Below are positions 9,198 to 24,566 of a DNA stretch of 64,000 nt, in pieces. The notes below the pieces were generated by a model. It was not told the DNA's origin and did not search any database. It saw only the letters and a program-made list of their open reading frames with translations. The DNA comes from Candidatus Bathyarchaeota archaeon. Its GTDB lineage: Archaea; Thermoproteota; Bathyarchaeia; Bathyarchaeales; DTEX01. How positions within the stretch are numbered: position 1 is the stretch's first letter; every line of letters starts with the position of its first letter. The stretch covers positions 826,883-890,882 of the forward strand of contig CAVQNT010000002.1 in assembly GCA_963714275.1 (NCBI GenBank), read 5' to 3'. The position numbers and the translations under genes were made by a program.

Positions 9198-10436
9198 TTA
9201 GTCCACCAACCTAGCTGCGTCCTTGCATAAGAGGAAGATTGCTGCCGCCATAGGCAACTCGACCTTTTGTTTTTCGTATCCGCCAAACCATTCATCCCCA
9301 ATCCTGAACTTGTGGGTTTTCTCTACATATATTGTGGCTTCTCCCCTTTTGAATGCAACTGCACTTTTGAGCGGATCAAAAGAGTCGATGTTTGATGTCG
9401 GAAACGAAACTTTAAGCCACCCCGTTTTTCCGTGAAGGCTGTTGAGCAGACGGATCAGCCTGTGAATGTCGGTTGTAACCATCGTGTCAATTTTTACGGA
9501 TTGCCCTTCAACTGCGTGGTTGATGAACAGCTTCAGTTCCTCCTTGCCCACGCCTTTTATTATCCGCCAAGGTCCATTCTTCTCCCAACTTTTCAGGACG
9601 ACCTGCTTGTTTGAAAAAAGGTCATTTGCCCTTTTCTCTTTCAATCCAAGGCTCACTAGTTCTTTCACGGTCGCAGTTTTCAAGAACTCGTATGCGCCTT
9701 TCGCGATTCTGCCTTGCCATCCAAAATCGCTTAGGGCAGAACTGACTGTTTTTGCTGGTGCACGGGAAACAACCTCGACAAGGCTGAACAGAGACATATT
9801 TAGTCCAACTCCTGTGATGTAGTCGACGATTTCTTTTCGGGCGCCCGCATCCAGCTCTCGGATAACGGCGTTTACGACATGAACGTGGTAGCCTCGGTGT
9901 CCGCTGAAGGAAACTTCCACTTCTTCTGTGGAAAATCCGAATTCGGTTGTTAACATGTCAACAAGCTTGATTGTCTCTTTTTTTGCTGAGCCTAGGCATT
10001 CGTCGCATGGCCAGATTTTTTCGTCGAACCTTCTGCTTCCGCAGGCTGGGCAAACGTCGGGTTGGCCTTTGCCGCTGAATCCGCAGTCTTTGCAAGTCCA
10101 TGAGTCGTGGGTTTCTTTGCATTTCGTAGCGATGTGGTCTGCGTCGATGTCGAAGTACAGGTCAGCGCCTAGCCAACCCTTGTTTTCCATCCTTTCTTCG
10201 GGCGTCTCGTAGTAGGCTGTTGAGTGGTACGCGTGGGCTGGAACGACCTCTTTCACATATGCCCTGAGCGCATCCGAGTTCGTGAAGCCTTTGTGCCTGA
10301 CCATTATGTTTTCTTTGAAAATCATGAACCCGAATTCTCTTTGTTTGATTGATGGTGGCGCCTCGATTTTTACTGCGTTTTCTTCGTAGAACTCGGCGAA
10401 TTTTTGGCGAATAAAAGTTTGAGAGTCCATTTTCAC
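9198..10436 (-). CDS. priS: DNA primase small (catalytic) subunit PriS
   Basis: 412 aa with catalytic DLYFDIDADH, a Zn-binding cluster (CKDCGFSGKG..CPACG) and SGHRGYHVHV. Confidence 0.9.
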   Translation of the reverse strand: MKMDSQTFIRQKFAEFYEENAVKIEAPPSIKQREFGFMIFKENIMVRHKGFTNSDALRAYVKEVVPAHAYHSTAYYETPEERMENKGWLGADLYFDIDADHIATKCKETHDSWTCKDCGFSGKGQPDVCPACGSRRFDEKIWPCDECLGSAKKETIKLVDMLTTEFGFSTEEVEVSFSGHRGYHVHVVNAVIRELDAGARKEIVDYITGVGLNMSLFSLVEVVSRAPAKTVSSALSDFGWQGRIAKGAYEFLKTATVKELVSLGLKEKRANDLFSNKQVVLKSWEKNGPWRIIKGVGKEELKLFINHAVEGQSVKIDTMVTTDIHRLIRLLNSLHGKTGWLKVSFPTSNIDSFDPLKSAVAFKRGEATIYVEKTHKFRIGDEWFGGYEKQKVELPMAAAIFLLCKDAARLVD

Positions 10437-11534: not shown

Positions 11535-12290
11535 CTATTCGACTTCTATTCTGGGCGCCAAGTAATAGACTAACGTGCCATCGTAGGTTTGTTTGAAGTC
11601 GAGGCGGATGGGCATGTCGTTCGAGAACTCGAGCGTCACAATGTCGGAGGTGGCAACCGCTGCCTTAACAATCTCCGAAAGGTAGCTCAAAGGAAATGTT
11701 GACTTCGAAGGTTCCGTTACCTCAACAGACAACAGCGCGTCGCTGCCTTTTTTGAGTTCTATGCTTGCTCCCATGATGTCTCCTTTGGCGTTCATCGCCA
11801 TGTTTTCGCCGTCGGTTTCCACGCGGACGTGGTCGCTTACTAGCGCAACGTCTTCGAGCGATTGGCGAAGCCCGTCTGTCGTTAAAGTAATCTTCGAGTT
11901 GAATGTGATTTTTGGTAATCCCTGCTCTTCTTCGGTTGCCTCTAGCGTTGGCATCCTGAATGTGCGGATGTATTTTCCTTTAACCGTCATCACGAATTGT
12001 CCTGTGGTTTCGTCCAGATAGAGCTCGACGGCTTCGTCTTTTCCTGCCCTTTTGAGGAGCTTCAGCAGCTCGCCCAAGTTCAGGCAAATTTTGGTTTCCT
12101 GGTCCGAAACATACTCGTCGAAGGCTGTTTTCTGCATAGTAAAGTCGACCATGGCTACGCGTGAAGGGTCCATGGCTCTGAGTTTGATTCCTTCTGTGCC
12201 TACGACGAACGTGCCTTCGTCAATAAGTGTCGAGATAGCTGTGACCGCGTCTCTCAGAAGCTTCGCGTCAGACATCCTAATTTTGAACAT
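11535..12290 (-). CDS. pcn: DNA polymerase sliding clamp PCNA
   Basis: 251 aa with typical PCNA N-terminus (MFKIRMSDAKLLRDAVTAISTLIDE) and length. Confidence 0.9.
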   Translation of the reverse strand: MFKIRMSDAKLLRDAVTAISTLIDEGTFVVGTEGIKLRAMDPSRVAMVDFTMQKTAFDEYVSDQETKICLNLGELLKLLKRAGKDEAVELYLDETTGQFVMTVKGKYIRTFRMPTLEATEEEQGLPKITFNSKITLTTDGLRQSLEDVALVSDHVRVETDGENMAMNAKGDIMGASIELKKGSDALLSVEVTEPSKSTFPLSYLSEIVKAAVATSDIVTLEFSNDMPIRLDFKQTYDGTLVYYLAPRIEVE

Positions 12291-12443
12291 GACCTATTCA
12301 CCGTTCGATAATTGTGTGTGTTTCTATAATTCAATGCACCTAGATTACTTAAATGTTTTAGACAAACCACAATTTAAACAATTTTGTATTGCTGGTTCAG
12401 TTTGAATCTTAACTAGCGATTATTGATTTAATTATTAAACTAT

Positions 12444-12481
12444 GTTTATGAGTATTCTCTGAATGTGTAGTTGCATTTTGT
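12444..12481. repeat. attL: orphan copy of the last 11 codons plus stop of tfs
   Basis: gtttatgagtattctctgaatgtgtagttgcattttgt, identical to 14951..14988. Confidence 0.9.
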
Positions 12482-12519
12482 TTTGGCTCATTAGTATTAG
12501 CTTCTGGAATACTTGACAT
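12482..12519 (-). other. Detached 5' end of the integrase gene (Int-N: start codon plus 13 codons) with its upstream promoter-like region
   Basis: Minus strand from ATG 12519 reads MSSIPEANTNEPK, then enters attL as QNATTHSENTHK. This is the same frame in which attR is read by the integrase body. A purine-rich stretch and TTTAAA (12565-12570) lie upstream. Confidence 0.75.
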
Positions 12520-12609
12520 TCTCTCTTTTTCCCCTTTTTAGCGTGTATATCTCTATCAAACTCCTTTAAATATGTAGCATCGTGTGAGCTGACTTTACTC
12601 TAAGCTTTG

Positions 12610-12649
12610 ATTCTAAGAGTAGAATTTCTGCAAGTCTCTAAGAGTAGAG
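12610..12649. promoter_or_regulatory. Pair of palindromic sites (ATTCTA-AGAG-TAGAAT and CTCTA-AGAG-TAGAG) upstream of the Int-N start
   Basis: Seen directly. The 17-mer attctaagagtagaatt recurs at 14051-14067, and gcaagtctcta also recurs. Confidence 0.55.
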
Positions 12650-12679
12650 GCTCTAACTCTAACTAGTGAAGTTAGCTAG

Positions 12680-12937
12680 TTAGTCTCTCATTACTTTTTC
12701 TCCACTTTTAAAGGAAATAATTGTTGAATCGTCCTCCCAATCTATGTTTCTTTCTCCCATTAATGCAACTCTTACAATAAAGCCCGGAGGTAAAGGCATA
12801 TGTTCAAAATAAATTAAATCGAATCCTTCCTTTCTAAGTCTAGGCATCAATTGATTTGATATATATAGAGAAACAAGTCTTTCGGTTATTCGAGCTTTCC
12901 AATTATTTAGTTCGGAAGGACGAAACGAATATTTCAT
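12680..12937 (-). CDS. Hypothetical protein (85 aa) of the integrated element
   Basis: Intact ORF inside the element. I recognise no family. A 14-nt perfect palindrome gcttgatatcaagc (12994-13007) lies upstream. Confidence 0.4.
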   Translation of the reverse strand: MKYSFRPSELNNWKARITERLVSLYISNQLMPRLRKEGFDLIYFEHMPLPPGFIVRVALMGERNIDWEDDSTIISFKSGEKVMRD

Positions 12938-13118
12938 TTCTTCTCCCTTATTGTTTATATAGAAATCACTATAAAAATTTTAGTGGCTAGCTAGCTTGAT
13001 ATCAAGCGGGACAGAAAGGGCTTTTACCTTCCACAAAAGGCAGTATATGGAAAGAAAACACCGAAAAAGTATTAGACATTTTTATGTCTCGTTCAGTATA
13101 GCTGAATTACTCACCACT

Positions 13119-13817
13119 CTAGCTAGTCCATTCTAGTGTTAAATTCCATCCTGTTAAAGCAGGTCCATCAAAGTAAACTTTTGAATCTACACTTATCCAA
13201 GATTCTCCGTTTATTGTGCCTAATGTTATGTATGTATCGTTTGCCACAACTCCACCACTTTGATAGAGTATTACATGAATCTTAGAATTATAAGCAGTAT
13301 TTGTTCCGACATTGCAGACGTATCCATAGACTTTAAGATACAGTTTGTCCCAAAACGGTCCATTGTCATCACCCTTCAAATTCACACCAATAAGTTTTGG
13401 TGTTATTAAAGTATTAATTTGATTCTGCAAGTTTGTAATTTGAGTAGTCAATAAAGAGACTTGTGTATTTAGATCGGATATTTGGTTCTGTAGATTTGTT
13501 ATTTGCGAATTCAATTGATTATTCTGATCCGTGAGTACCAATATTTGCGAATTCAGTGAATCAATTTGAGTATTATAATATGTAATGTTTTCATCAAGCC
13601 ATGTTTGTAAATAGCTTAGTAGAGTTTCATTCCGATCCAGCCAACTTTGTAGTTGATTCTTTTGGTTAGTAAGAATTTGAATTTGAAAATCTATACTTTG
13701 AATGTAACTATCTTTTCTGTTCACTGCTACTGCCATTCCTAATAAACCGACTGCTAAAATTATGCACAGTATTACTAGCCCGACGACTTTTCTACTTACA
13801 ACGTTCTTTTCACTCAT
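13119..13817 (-). CDS. Membrane-anchored Q/N-rich coiled-coil protein with C-terminal beta-rich domain (element-encoded)
   Basis: 232 aa with an N-terminal TM segment (VVGLVILCIILAVGLLGMAVAV) and heptad-like repeats (LTNQKNQLQSWLD, ITNLQNQISDLNTQVSLLTTQITNLQNQINTL). Confidence 0.6.
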   Translation of the reverse strand: MSEKNVVSRKVVGLVILCIILAVGLLGMAVAVNRKDSYIQSIDFQIQILTNQKNQLQSWLDRNETLLSYLQTWLDENITYYNTQIDSLNSQILVLTDQNNQLNSQITNLQNQISDLNTQVSLLTTQITNLQNQINTLITPKLIGVNLKGDDNGPFWDKLYLKVYGYVCNVGTNTAYNSKIHVILYQSGGVVANDTYITLGTINGESWISVDSKVYFDGPALTGWNLTLEWTS

Positions 13818-14049
13818 TTTATTCCCCCCTTTATATTCGTTATAAAATAAACTCGTATGGCAAAGTGAATAGACCGATTACTATATCTTTTGTTGAAAAG
13901 GACATAAATAAAAATTTGTATTAACAAAGAAGTGTTTTGTGAAAAACTAATACTAATCAGAAAACTGGACTACCAGACAGTAGTGACTAGCATTGAAGCT
14001 CAGCTACATGATATGTACTCTTCATGCACACAGTTCTCTATGAAGAAAA

Positions 14050-14085
14050 AATTCTAAGAGTAGAATTAAGTCCTAAGAGCTAGCA
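14050..14085. promoter_or_regulatory. Second pair of related palindromic sites (AATTCTA-AGAG-TAGAATT plus degenerate TCCTAAGAGCTAGC)
   Basis: Seen directly. Lies between the integrase stop (14271) and the start of the coiled-coil gene (13817). Confidence 0.55.
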
Positions 14086-14270
14086 AGTCTCTAGAACCTG
14101 AGAAGCTAGCTGACTTGACCCAAGGTCTAAGAATTTAATTCTATGCATTGAAAAATCATAGTTCAATAGCAACTAAACTGGCTCGTACCTTGTTAACAGC
14201 TTCTTTATCTACACCAATTTTTTCAAGCAGTTTGAGCACATTTTTACTGTCTGTTATCTTGCTTGCTGAG

Positions 14271-14988
14271 CTAGTACAGCATTGAAGCATAGTAGTGTCT
14301 TAAGTCGTAGAGTCTTATTCTCTTAAGCTCTGAGTCATGCATCTTCTTAGCTAAGCTAGTTCTCAGTCTTTCAAAGGTGTTGCTGATTGTGGAAGACTTT
14401 AGGAAGATTCTGTCGTTTAAGTTGAAGCTGTGTCTCTTTACATGCTCAACTAACATACATTGAGTGTGAGGTTTTAGCTTTAATATTCTAGGGTTGCCGT
14501 ACTTTGCTGAGTATACTGAGACTGTTCCTTTCTCTAAGTCAATGTCTCTGAGTGTGAGGTTTGCTACTTCTATTGGTCTGAGTCCACATTCTTTGATGAT
14601 TGAATAGATTAGTGCATACTTTCTTGAAGCATGTCCAAGCATAAGGTTTACTTTCTCTTCTTTTGGGACTACAAGAATCTTGTGGTCTCTTCTGTACTTT
14701 GGCTTATTCCAAGCTAAACCATTGTACTTGACATAGTGCTGATAGAAGTCGCATAAGTTTCCTTTGTAGCTACTTGCCCATTTTCCTCTAGCTATGAATA
14801 TTGAGACATCGCTTGAATTATCCAAGTTCATTCTATTAGCTAAGAACATTAATGCCCTTAGCATTGTCTCAAGGTAGGCTTTGGAGTATCCTAGTTTCTC
14901 TAGCTCAAAACAGACTTTGATTATTTTGCCCTTAGATTCGAATGCACATAGTTTATGAGTATTCTCTGAATGTGTAGTTGCATTTTGT
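14271..14988 (-). pseudogene. int: SSV-type tyrosine recombinase/integrase body (Int-C), apparently truncated before the catalytic Tyr
   Basis: Contains GLRPIEVANLTLRDIDLEKGTV (box I Arg) and RLYDLRHYYASMLY (box II), then TAG at 14271. The first 31 aa of track ORF 14271..15080 are just tfs read in another frame. Confidence 0.75.
14951..14988. repeat. attR: copy forming the functional 3' end of tfs
   Basis: Same 38-mer. On the minus strand it encodes TKCNYTFREYS-stop of TFS. Confidence 0.9.
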
Positions 14989-15291
14989 GCATCTGAAGAA
15001 TTGGGTTGAGGATTCGTCTGCTCCCCTTGTTTGTACTTGCCAGACGTATGCGGCGTTGTTTCCGCATTTTGGGCATTCAATCGTGGTCGTTGGAAGCGTC
15101 TGAAGCTTCTGTTCCTTCTTGCCGATGACTACTAGATGGTCTCGAGGCTTGGGAGCTGCAACCTTCTGCGTGCAAACGTCAGATTCCACTGACTTCCTAT
15201 AACTGCATTTAGGACAGACAAGATAACAGCCTTTCCCGTCCTTTTTCCGTTTAGCCACGAGACGGGTCTCGCACTTTGGACAAAATTCCAT
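14953..15291 (-). CDS. tfs: Transcription factor S (TFS; RNA polymerase subunit M/TFIIS-like)
   Basis: 112 aa with two Zn ribbons (CPKCETRL..CPKCSY and CPKCGNN..QTRGADESSTQFFRCTKCNYTF). Confidence 0.9.
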   Translation of the reverse strand: MEFCPKCETRLVAKRKKDGKGCYLVCPKCSYRKSVESDVCTQKVAAPKPRDHLVVIGKKEQKLQTLPTTTIECPKCGNNAAYVWQVQTRGADESSTQFFRCTKCNYTFREYS

Positions 15292-15461
15292 TGAAGCCCC
15301 CCAAGTAACAGTTAGCCAAATTTTGTCTATAACGGTTCTTTTAAACTTTTCTGAACCAACACAACATCGCGGTTGTCTACAGCCTAAGCCAAAACAATGT
15401 AACCCAACTGTAAATACTCAATAGTTTAGACGAAGGAAGCTTTAAAAAAATAGTGACTTAG

Positions 15462-15602
15462 CTTAGCCTCCTACCAGACATAATACAGTCACTAAAAAAT
15501 AAACTAGCAGGACTGCCTGACCGAACCTTCGTCTATTCGGGGCACGGAGAAACAACAACAATCGGGAAAGAAAAAATTACGAATCCTTTTCTTCTAGCCT
15601 AA
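15462..15602 (+). pseudogene. C-terminal remnant of an MBL-fold (glyoxalase II-like) hydrolase
   Basis: Manual translation: LSLLPDIIQSLKNKLAGLPDRTFVYSGHGETTTIGKEKITNPFLLA-stop. The GHG..TTIG.EK..NPF tail is typical of that family. There is no N-terminal part upstream. It overlaps the 3' end of 15594..16985 by 9 nt. Confidence 0.5.
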
Positions 15603-22388: not shown

Positions 22389-24566
22389 TTATGCCACTTT
22401 CTTTTGTAGGGTTATTACTGCTACGATTGATGCTAGTGCTGCGATGAGTGATAGGACTATTGCTCCGTAAACGGCTGTTGAGATTGTCGAAGTCGTGGCA
22501 GAAGCTGCTTCGGCAGCTGTTTTGGCAGCTGTTGCAGCTGTGGATGCTACTGAAGCTGCGGAGGCTGCGGTTGCAGCTTGAGTGGAAGCGGTTTGAGCAT
22601 AGGTTTCGATGCTTACTAGTCGTGTGGATAATCCGCTTATTTGAGTTGTTAACGCAGACTGGGCGTCAGCAACTGCGGTCTGGATTGCAGTTAATTGGGT
22701 CTTTAGGGATGGTAAGCCGGTGCTGGTGCTATTGACGTAGGATTTTAAGCTGTTTAATGTAGTATCAATAGCGGTGAGCTTGTCCAAGATTACATTTTCT
22801 GCTTCTCCGACAACTGTAAACAGCTTATACGAATCAAGTGTAGGAAGTACGCTTGATACTCCCATCTTATAGAGCGCTATGACGTGTGCGCCTGGATTGA
22901 AGCCAGCGCCAATTACTATCTTAAATGCTGACAGTTCTCCTTTGCTGGAGCCCATGAAGTATTTCGGGTAACCAGACGAGGAGTTGGTAAAGAAGTCCTT
23001 GGAATAGTCTACGCATAGGTCGTAGTAAGCAGGATACGCTAAGCCTGTTCCTGTTATAGTTACCTCAGTTCCGTTGTTTATAGGTGAAGCGGGTGAGATG
23101 GTTAACAGAATCGTTACGGTAAAGGTAGCATTAGAGTATGTTTGAAGTATTCATTTGTGACAGCACTGACATCGTGGTCTCCTCCCACAGTAGTAGGAAC
23201 AGTGAATGCAGGTGAAACGAACTGGCCATTTGCGCCTGTGTAAACTTTGTATACCAAATTCGAATTTGTAGTCTTTGCAAGAGCATCGGTGTAATCCCAT
23301 ATAATGGTTACATTATTATCATTTGTATATGGGAATCCGTATCCAGAAGCAACAACAGATGTGCCAATTGGTCCACTTGAGGGGGTAAGGATTAAGGTTG
23401 GTACCACAGTTACCGTTGCGTTCATGTTGTAGGTAAGGTCGACTAACGTTATTGTGTGTATGCCCATCTGCGATACGGGTACTGTAACGCTGACGTTGAA
23501 GAATCCAGTTACACTATTCACGGTAATACCAGATATGAGTGTTACTTGTGTTGATGCCCCATAATCCCAATACAGAGCAGCTGTACCGCCAGGGTTGGTG
23601 AAGTTGACTGATACATAGATGACTGCACTAACTTTGACGCTGCCATCAACATAACCGTTACCTTGTGCGCCACCCATGCCAAGGTAAGTATTTACTTGTA
23701 GCCACCTTCTTTCGTTCTCAGTATATGTCTTTGTGGCGAGAATACTTACAGTTCCATTATAGTAGGCGTTCACGTATTTTGTCGTTTCAGCGTTGAATAA
23801 CTTACTCTCTGCAACGACGAATGTAGCAGTAAAGGTTCCATTCGTGTATGGTGTTATGAGTGGAATAACTACTGGTGTTGTACGCTGAATTGGAATTAGC
23901 ATAAGATACATTCAGTTTCTTTGTGTTGTCCCAAGCCATACCCTTGACTGTAACTGTTGTTCCTACTGGTCCAGAGGATGGAGTGATTGTTATTGATTCG
24001 TAGGGTTTCCATTGGTTCACTGAGACCGCAACATCACTTGATGGTATGCTCGCTGAAGGTAAGACGTCAACTATCTTTATGTAGTAATTGACGCCTCTTG
24101 GTACAGTACTTCCAGCTGGTAAGGGTCCAATTATCAAGTTGTTGCCAAGCCAGAACCTCTGACCAGATTTGGCGTCAGTTGTTTTTGAATAATTGCCCGA
24201 TGGTACTGAAGCTATAATACTGCTGAGTGCAAACGGACCTGCATACCATACATCACCGGGATCTATGGTAGCTCCGCCTGTTTCAGATATGTAAAGCCAG
24301 ACTTGTGCACCAGTTATTGTCATGCCTGTTATGTTAATAGCTACAAGATCTCCTGAATCATAAGAGTTAATGTGTGTTTGTATAACACTACCGGTAGCAT
24401 AACCGCCAGGAACAAGGGAATTCCAAGCATTTTCTGTATGAGAAGTTACTTTAAGGAGCGTTGGTTTGCCAGTTATCGTTGCCGATACTGGTATTATGGA
24501 AAGTAATGGTAATGCCATCATTAGTACAACAATAAGTGTAGCAAATACTCTAGATTTCTTTTGCAT
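22389..24566 (-). pseudogene. Large secreted, C-terminally anchored surface protein (S-layer/adhesin candidate), two frameshifts
   Basis: Signal peptide MQKKSRVFATLIVVLMMALPLLSIIPVSA, beta-rich repeats with many N-x-S/T sequons, an Ala/Thr-rich coiled-coil stalk and a C-terminal TM segment (AVYGAIVLSLIAALASIVAVITL). Three track ORFs are linked by frame changes near 23850-23911 and 23114-23140. The downstream frame stays open through 22956-23113. Confidence 0.7.

Follow-up and report, generated by a model that had tools for sequence, protein, structure and literature searches.

Results

A small element lies between tfs and the PCNA gene

The DNA analysed here is a 64,000-nt stretch of a Candidatus Bathyarchaeota archaeon genome (assembly GCA_963714275.1, contig CAVQNT010000002.1, positions 826,883-890,882), which we call the window. 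In it, a small integrated element lies between the gene tfs and the PCNA gene; it carries a tyrosine recombinase (integrase) gene, int, and two further open reading frames (ORFs), ORF232 and ORF85 (Table 1). A perfect 38-bp direct repeat, the attachment site (att), brackets the element (12444-12481 = 14951-14988), with identity ending immediately at both sides; the number of such repeats expected by chance in 64 kb is about 3e-14 (calculated as N^2/2 / 4^38). Its reverse complement reads ACA AAA TGC AAC TAC ACA TTC AGA GAA TAC TCA TAA AC, which corresponds to the final 11 codons of tfs (TKCNYTFREYS), the stop codon and 2 nt. The GC content of the interior is 0.31-0.38, the minimum of the window, against 0.45-0.51 in the flanks, and int, ORF232 and ORF85 all lie on the minus strand, co-oriented with tfs and the PCNA gene. 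A first-pass annotation made from the sequence alone had described an AT-rich integrative element with genes in one orientation, bounded by a perfect repeat of the tfs 3' end, and our analysis confirmed the composition, the orientation and the coordinates, perfection and tfs match of the repeat.

Sites without the element are found in closely related genomes. Ten other contigs, from metagenomes and metagenome-assembled genomes (MAGs), encode the same TFS protein as the window (PF01096 match at 1.4e-17), which is thus identical at empty sites, and on those that reach past tfs the PCNA gene follows directly. In the contig L024, whose PCNA protein is identical to that of the window and whose flanks are 97.5-98.4% identical, the order is tfs, a single att copy and the same spacer as in the window, with 155 nt from tfs to PCNA. 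A second contig, L002, shows the same arrangement at 96-98.8% identity to the window flanks, and empty sites of a further type (L001) are 91% identical and have a 94-nt spacer that is without the 61-nt stretch 12383-12443. Because L024 and L002 carry tfs, a single att and the same spacer, the insert can be delimited to exactly 2,507 bp (element plus one att copy). Occupied and empty sites therefore coexist among hosts that are at least 96% identical. The annotation had proposed to look for such empty sites as a check on its placement of an integrative element in the tfs 3' end, and these exact ones, in metagenome contigs 96-98% identical at the flanks, bear that placement out.

The window derives from metagenome assembly, in which a repeat of 38 bp might mislead the assembler; the locus could then be a chimera formed at the 38-mer, or else the tfs 3' end might have been rearranged or duplicated locally without any mobile element. 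However, independent assemblies of other samples contain the same tfs::int junction: it recurs in the metagenome proteins P0236 and P0237, which consist of a tfs alternate-frame N-terminus, the att peptide and the int body. A contig from ENA (L054) is moreover 98.75% identical to the window from 14718 to 12559. An integrase gene lies at the junction, the composition of the insert is foreign, and the same architecture occurs in eight other genomes with different cargo. The junction is no assembly artefact, and a locus without a mobile element is scarcely conceivable.

Table 1. Features of the element and of its insertion site. Positions are those of the window.
Feature	Position	Strand	Description
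Host spacer polymorphism	12383..12443		AT-rich, 61 nt; outside the element; shared by the empty sites L024 and L002 but not by those of the L001 type
PCNA-proximal att copy	12444..12481	-	In int frame, after int(N); the host spacer is directly next, exactly as in empty site L024
int(N)	12482..12519	-	ATG 12519 and leader MSSIPEANTNEPK, 12 2/3 codons; separated from the int body
Putative int promoter and leader	12520..12575	-	TATA-like TTTAAA at 12565-12570, some 45 nt ahead of the ATG; purine-rich GGGGAAAAAGAGAGA immediately in front of it; function inferred
Second 17-nt palindromic motif ATTCTACTCTTAGAAT	12610..12626		Some 90 nt upstream of the int(N) start codon; in a stretch of about 70 nt similar to 14040-14110
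ORF85	12680..12937	-	ORFan cargo; occurs only in copies of the window element
ORF232	13119..13817	-	N-terminal membrane anchor, single helix of about 130 residues (coiled-coil stalk), C-terminal immunoglobulin-like (Ig-like) beta-sandwich
Unique spacer	13821..14270	-	Past the truncation breakpoint; spurious-looking 44-aa ORF 14156..14290; one ATTCTACTCTTAGAAT copy at 14051-14067
int(C), truncated	14271..14950	-	N-terminal core-binding domain and catalytic domain ending R-H-Y-Y-A-S-M-L-Y-stop; last ~76 codons missing
tfs-proximal att copy	14951..14988	-	tfs 3' end; +1 frame encodes Int residues QNATTHSENTHK; equals the attB of empty sites L024, L001 and L002
Host tfs	14953..15291	-	112 aa; TFIIS-type C-terminal zinc ribbon with ADE acidic loop; intact despite the insertion

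The integrase gene is split by integration

On the minus strand, the ATG at 12519 opens MSSIPEANTNEPK and the frame then enters the left repeat, which is read as QNATTHSENTHK. In the right repeat the frame is identical and gives residues 32-43 of ORF 14271..15080, after which a tyrosine-recombinase body follows (PF00589, 7.5e-9). Translation and homologue alignment show no start codon in the interval from this att copy to the conserved helix that comes first in the enzyme (IIKVCFELEKLGYSKAYL...), so the int ORF must begin in or beyond att. In the integrated state the int frame runs on into the +1 frame of tfs, where it stays open for 31 codons (window 14951-15080) and where the sole start codon is a TTG at 15080. 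The annotation had reported the ATG, the reading of both repeats in the int frame and the TTTAAA box at 12565-12570, all of them correctly.

A genome scan that retained one genome per species gave nine loci, eight in named Bathyarchaeia/Bathyarchaeota MAGs and one in an uncultured archaeon. At all eight loci with enough flanking sequence (L011-L018) the int homologue begins inside the tfs 3' end, and PCNA lies 2-7 kb downstream in six of them, those where it is within reach; the use of tfs is clade-wide. Direct repeats of the tfs 3' end are exact in L011 (32 bp), L012 (33 bp), L013 (24 bp) and L015 (37 bp), and degenerate in L016 and L018. The elements defined by these repeats range from about 1.8 kb (L016, with its degenerate repeat) and 2.4 kb (L011) up to 5.5-6.6 kb. 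At L012, L013 and L015 an in-frame ATG stands 12-15 codons before the distal att, with stop codons upstream (MTETQEAPRGADAV, MAENEKEARNFGDAL, MEERESDINSIN).

Unsplit genes also exist. In L021, L022 and L023, int has its own ATG and leader, with no tfs nearby. That of L021 reads MTETQKEPETEPCDA, QNATTHSENTHK and HCAF... in succession, and its attP, the attachment site within the gene, contains the exact 38-mer of the window. L022 has an exact 141-nt terminal overlap (k=141 assembly) that makes it a circular or tandem unit of 4,528 bp; it encodes an intact integrase, P0014 (327 aa), with a 31-nt match to a tfs 3' end of the L015/L016 type at codons ~21-32. The unsplit genes of P0101, P0014 and P0019 have leaders of the same kind as int(N) of the window. 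The putative pre-ATG elements recur as well: an A/T-rich box precedes the ATG by about 45 nt in L021 and L023, as in the window, and a purine-rich stretch directly in front of the ATG is shared by L021, L022, L023 and a more distant relative, L029. Together with the distal ATGs of the relatives, these unsplit genes uphold the annotation's proposal that attP lies inside int and that integration splits the gene.

At the protein level, 114 homologues were found in a collection of 5.8 billion proteins. The att peptide is kept in 32, and in 30 of the 32 a tfs alternate-frame segment precedes it; one of these 30 is the unsplit P0014, where the attP homology extends upstream.

An alternative is that int is not split at all, but starts in the tfs alternate frame or at an internal Met, in a pNOB8-like manner, with the ATG at 12519 a coincidence. 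The frame is indeed open into tfs as far as the TTG, many integrated relatives have ATGs there (MFGKC..., MNLQ..., MSLR...), gene callers often choose an internal Met (268-aa calls), and the signature of the enzyme, YxxR, is that of the pNOB8 type. However, whether tfs supplies an ATG depends on its choice of synonymous codons, and the window, L012 and L015 have none; an internal start would remove the conserved first helix, and an in-frame ATG with stops upstream is a recurrent feature of the distal ends. In L021, L022 and L023, the gene's own ATG, purine-rich stretch and leader lie upstream of attP where there is no tfs. We therefore regard an unsplit gene as improbable. A host-supplied start codon was also rejected as a conserved feature of these elements, as it varies with tfs codon choice, is missing from the three sites named and shows no sign of selection. 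In many hosts the +1 frame of tfs contains ATGs that arise from synonymous tfs codons (TAT-GTx, GAT-GAA), as it does in L001 but not in the window.

The window copy has lost the catalytic end of its integrase

Joining int(N) and int(C) through one att copy gives an ORF of 251 aa, which stops three residues past RHYYAS. It matches PF00589 over profile positions 15-141 of 172, up to the very end of the protein. The full-length homologues (317-328 aa) continue for about 76 residues (YKTKDILLVKEKLGHRNINNTLxYTHLV...), with a small C-terminal domain ending KLFRKRK, and it is this missing segment that holds the invariant LGH and the nucleophilic Tyr. The closest intact relative, L020 (protein P0002), is 91% identical at the nucleotide level from window position 14866 to 14272, where the similarity ends abruptly, and the TAG stop of the window gene is created at this junction. 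No remnant of the missing 3' end was found within the whole 64-kb window, nor in another frame downstream of 14271. The 44-aa ORF at 14156..14290 was considered as the C-terminal tail of the family and rejected, as its resemblance is superficial and it is without the Tyr.

The same truncated allele is present in P0236, P0237, P0238 and L054, so the truncation is old enough to have spread or to have been inherited. In P0236, Glu replaces the nearly invariant Arg of KRIRLYDLRH, which fits relaxed constraint on a dead gene.

The catalytic tyrosine of tyrosine recombinases is absent from the window copy. Judged from its sequence, the window int is dead: excision would restore a start codon but no active site, and since the segment with the catalytic Tyr is lost, the copy should be unable to excise itself even with int(N) and int(C) rejoined. 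The annotation had int rebuilt on excision. A continuous ORF with its own start would indeed be restored, but not a functional gene, as about 76 codons including that of the catalytic Tyr are missing.

An active SSV1-type element, with a functional int restored on excision, would agree with the split architecture and its frames, with the relatives that show the mechanism in the family, and with the occupied/empty polymorphism among 96-98% identical genomes. It is nevertheless very improbable for the window copy: the 251-aa ORF lacks the LGH...Y-T-H that is invariant in all full-length homologues, with the breakpoint at 14272, the enzyme has neither PF16795 nor similarity to SSV1 Int (see below), and a sequencing or assembly error at 14272 is unlikely as the truncation recurs in three other assemblies.

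The integrase is Xer-like

The integrases of the SSV, pTN3-like and pT26-2-like elements, called suicidal, carry PF16795 and a KxxR signature (PMC8371274). In Pfam searches with E-values up to 10, PF00589 was the only match of the window Int and four homologues, the latter covering positions 5-168 of 172 at 1e-18 to 7e-24, and PF16795 gave no match to any of the five even at E<=10. A profile of the family searched against PDB retrieved XerA 4a8e (1.5e-22), IntI4, XerA 5hxy, XerH and XerD. SSV1 Int was absent from this profile search at E<=10, as well as from the top 50 fold matches in PDB or BFVD.

The AlphaFold2 (AF2) model of the unsplit P0014 has a predicted local distance difference test score (pLDDT) of 83.9, with residues 1-31, encoded by the counterparts of int(N) and att, below 50. 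Past residue 31 the model shows a two-domain Xer-like fold, whose best PDB matches are XerA, IntI4, Tn1549 Int, XerH, lambda Int and Cre, and whose best BFVD matches are ordinary phage integrases. Because residues 1-31 are modelled at such low confidence, the split would fall in a predicted disordered leader, and all folded domains would be encoded by int(C). The signature of the family is L-Y-D-L-R-H, that is, YxxR and not KxxR, with the Y aligned to the H of the HxxR of XerA; R, YxxR, LGH and Y are invariant in the family, which has the two domains of a tyrosine recombinase.

The integrase is thus a Xer-like PF00589 recombinase outside the SSV family, and the assignment to SSV-type integrases made by the annotation does not hold at the level of family: PF16795 and SSV1 Int were found by neither Pfam, PDB profile nor PDB/BFVD fold searches. 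It is SSV-like by mechanism. Among the four features that define the SSV type, the split attP is present, whereas PF16795, KxxR and a tRNA target are not.

Copies accumulate at tfs, and distant relatives use tRNA genes

At L011 (9941-13370) two different int elements are inserted in tandem in one tfs, and the 32-bp repeat stands at 10003 and 12449. A study of pT26-2 integrases reported that its data set included no case of identical tandem insertions (PMC7253208). In L012 (16657-16760) the distal att is followed by the decayed 5' end of a second int (HCAYRGEVIKAVVKLREMGYSLELLC, then a stop), which is left over from an earlier element in that position, and L017 and L018 have frameshifted or truncated int genes. 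From the tandem at L011, the decayed start at L012 and the broken genes of L017 and L018, we infer that the tfs-PCNA spacer is a hot spot that collects live and decayed copies.

The 61-nt stretch at 12383-12443 was rejected as part of the element or as a scar of the present insertion, as the empty sites L024 and L002 contain it. This indel is bracketed by GTTTAA...GTTTAA. It could be the scar of an older insertion at the tfs-PCNA hot spot.

In eleven more distant homologues (30-44% identity) the N-terminus results from reading through a tRNA gene. At L029 (9983-14744; 33% identity) int overlaps tRNA-Pro(ggg) in antisense; a 37-bp direct repeat over the 5' half of the tRNA delimits an element of 4,682 bp, with an ATG 22 codons before the distal copy. 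Other tRNA-sited distant relatives are L030 (tRNA-Arg) and L034 (tRNA-Gln). In IMG/VR two relatives were found at 36-37% identity (L033 and L034), and the other 19 matches were at most 33% identical or short fragments. The distribution of these sites indicates that gene splitting is a trait of the wider family and tfs targeting that of one clade.

The cargo is mosaic

The element carries two genes besides int. ORF232 has 146 homologues, the named ones from Bathyarchaeia. Searches of Pfam and PHROGs gave coiled-coil noise only for this protein; its AF2 model (pLDDT 85.8) has weak and generic Ig-like fold matches (SadB, CARDB) and suggests that ORF232 is probably a cell-surface protein. The block 12986-13820 is 94% identical at the nucleotide level to L025 (1007-1808), L026 (7873-8722), L027 and L028, unrelated low-GC contigs where the context is quite different and adjoins a collagen-repeat gene; the homology begins 3 nt before the ORF232 ATG. 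Since this block is so similar in contigs of different context, the cargo is mosaic, and the block looks like a surface-protein cassette that recombines between contexts. ORF85 matched nothing in Pfam or PHROGs.

The 17-nt palindrome-containing motif ATTCTACTCTTAGAAT occurs twice, at 12610-12626 and 14051-14067, in similar intergenic stretches, and may be a regulator-binding site. The spacer 13821-14270 has no similarity to any related locus, and no cargo homology was found between the window element and the related tfs elements. The cargo of L020, L021 and L022 received no annotation except a zf-AN1 domain and a weak helix-turn-helix. Rfam gave no match in 12000-15500. A promoter and terminator scan found no more than in shuffled sequence, the scan being of a bacterial type that is not applicable to archaea.

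Elsewhere in the window, a block of lower GC (about 0.40-0.43) at 22389-24566 contains Thr/Ser-rich, surface-protein-like ORFs, two of which (23114..23911 and 23802..24566) overlap, possibly through a frameshift.

Discussion

A defective copy of a self-splitting element

We consider it very probable that the window holds an integrated, now defective copy of a small Bathyarchaeia element family with a Xer-like integrase, whose attP lies within the first ~25 codons of int. In such an element attP would copy the last 11 codons of tfs and the stop, read in the +1 frame as part of Int. By the known chemistry of tyrosine recombinases, Int would exchange strands between attP and attB, the tfs 3' end, within the 38 bp of identity. 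Insertion would regenerate an unchanged tfs, with the element between tfs and the PCNA gene. The putative int promoter, the ATG and 13 leader codons would be left next to PCNA, apart from the int body, which would now be joined to tfs in a different frame. As a free circle, the element would have the two halves side by side. A deletion or replacement with its breakpoint at 14272, presumably at some later time, would then have removed the last ~76 codons of int. The copy, with ORF232 and ORF85, would persist as a trapped remnant, at best mobilisable in trans.

Several observations weigh against this explanation. With only about 13 codons, int(N) taken alone could be a coincidence; the case rests on the comparative pattern, which, as far as sequences can tell, rules coincidence out. 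The first element of L011 has no ATG in the corresponding leader, and the terminal overlap of L022 could reflect a tandem array and not a free circle. Neither Pfam nor PHROGs gave any match to capsid, packaging, Rep/replication or conjugation/transfer genes among the ORFs of the window and the cargo of L020, L021 and L022. Lastly, an exact 22-mer scan of JGI metagenome contigs for the attP circular junction, which the annotation had suggested looking for, or for a second left junction of the window element returned two chance matches in unrelated DNA, as expected for a dead copy.

This last result bears also on whether the truncated element might still be mobile in trans, in the manner of a satellite, through a related and intact integrase resident in the same cell. 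Both att copies are perfect, the attP of L021 includes the exact 38-mer of the host, the same truncated element occurs in several metagenomes at about 98.8% identity, with occupied and empty sites in near-identical hosts, and for SSV2 and pTN3, excision in trans of an element with a split integrase has been described (PMC8371274). However, the divergence between copies (1.2%) is about that of the host flanks (1.6-2.5%), which fits vertical inheritance, and all junction-bearing copies are in tfs. Mobility in trans thus appears doubtful to us, and the window copy itself is, under the preferred reading of a defective integrated element, an ordinary decayed remnant, a fossil.

What it is a fossil of is a broader matter. 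It may represent an undescribed self-splitting lineage that arose apart from SSV, pTN3 and pT26-2 within the Xer-like PF00589 recombinases of Bathyarchaeia, where splitting costs the gene no more than its promoter, its start and some 25 residues of disordered leader, and where one clade switched from tRNA genes to the zinc-ribbon codons of tfs; for this wider proposal as a whole we see the balance as even. As int is co-oriented with tfs, its frame is open into tfs and int(C) encodes all the folded domains, transcription from the tfs promoter into int could also yield an active integrase with a host-encoded N-terminus, in which case 'suicidal' integrases of this kind would not be suicidal.

The published picture is that of a single PF16795 lineage, mainly in hyperthermophilic archaea and always at tRNA genes: a 2021 review held that suicidal integrases apparently arose in a single event and form one monophyletic superfamily in hyperthermophilic archaea (PMC8371274), and in a 2020 study of pT26-2 integrases all attachment sites were tRNA genes (PMC7253208). 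In contrast, the family described here has the same splitting architecture in a different, Xer-like branch, with one clade on a protein-coding target, and is apparently undescribed. A survey of Bathyarchaeia viruses mentions integrases in passing and describes Bathyarchaeia as common and abundant in sediments (PMC10848311). Our literature searches turned up neither tfs-targeting elements nor split integrases of Bathyarchaeia; as their coverage is incomplete, this absence is no proof.

If confirmed, the family would mean that the gene-splitting architecture evolved more than once, or is much older and wider than thought, and it would offer a natural switch of specificity from tRNA to a protein gene. 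The tfs-PCNA spacer would be an integration hot spot and a handle for finding mobile elements of Bathyarchaeia, and the compact attP/attB/Int system a possible genetic tool for them, a lineage that to our knowledge has none. Its interest would be chiefly to specialists in archaeal mobile elements.

Comparison with known systems

With SSV1, pTN3 and pT26-2 the Bathyarchaeia family shares an attP in the int ORF, a gene divided into int(N) and int(C), one at each end of the integrated element, and an att translated as Int, as well as flanking direct repeats, a conserved and regenerated 3' end of the host gene, and the accumulation of tandem or decayed copies (PMC8371274, PMC7253208). It differs from them in being PF00589 and Xer-like, not PF16795, in its YxxR in place of KxxR, and in the position of the split, which falls among the first ~25 codons, where disorder is predicted for the leader. 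Its hosts are metagenomic Bathyarchaeia, presumably not hyperthermophiles. The clade of the window targets a protein-coding gene, whereas the described suicidal integrases target tRNA genes (PMC7253208). The annotation had called the target unusual, which is right for self-splitting integrases, where the known targets are all tRNA genes (PMC7253208), and not for archaeal elements generally (PMC6563490).

The R...YxxR...Y signature is that of the pNOB8-type (type II) integrases, but pNOB8 int genes stay intact on integration, whereas in the Bathyarchaeia family int is split. The nearest solved relatives, by profile (1.5e-22) as by fold, are the archaeal XerA proteins (P. abyssi 4a8e, T. acidophilum 5hxy), which have the same two domains. 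XerA, however, is a chromosomal dif-site resolvase with HxxR, whereas the Bathyarchaeia family is element-borne, with YxxR, an att-encoded leader predicted to be disordered, and an extra C-terminal beta-alpha-beta domain of about 35 residues. In the bacterial phage Mx8, attP lies within intP, and integration alters the 3' end of int, not its promoter or start.

In Thaumarchaeota, 14 of 68 elements lie in the 3' ends of protein genes, and tfs is not among the targets given in that 2019 study (PMC6563490). Those elements resemble the present one in being small and cryptic, with an att that restores the 3' end of a protein gene, and were likewise characterised by comparing empty and occupied sites; they belong to another host phylum, and the passages of the study consulted contain no mention of int splitting, while 'SSV-type' occurs once, for a DnaA-like ATPase (PMC6563490). 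The dusA-specific integrases (PMC4482086) are, like those of the tfs clade, tyrosine integrases dedicated to one conserved protein-coding gene, but they are bacterial and keep their int gene intact.

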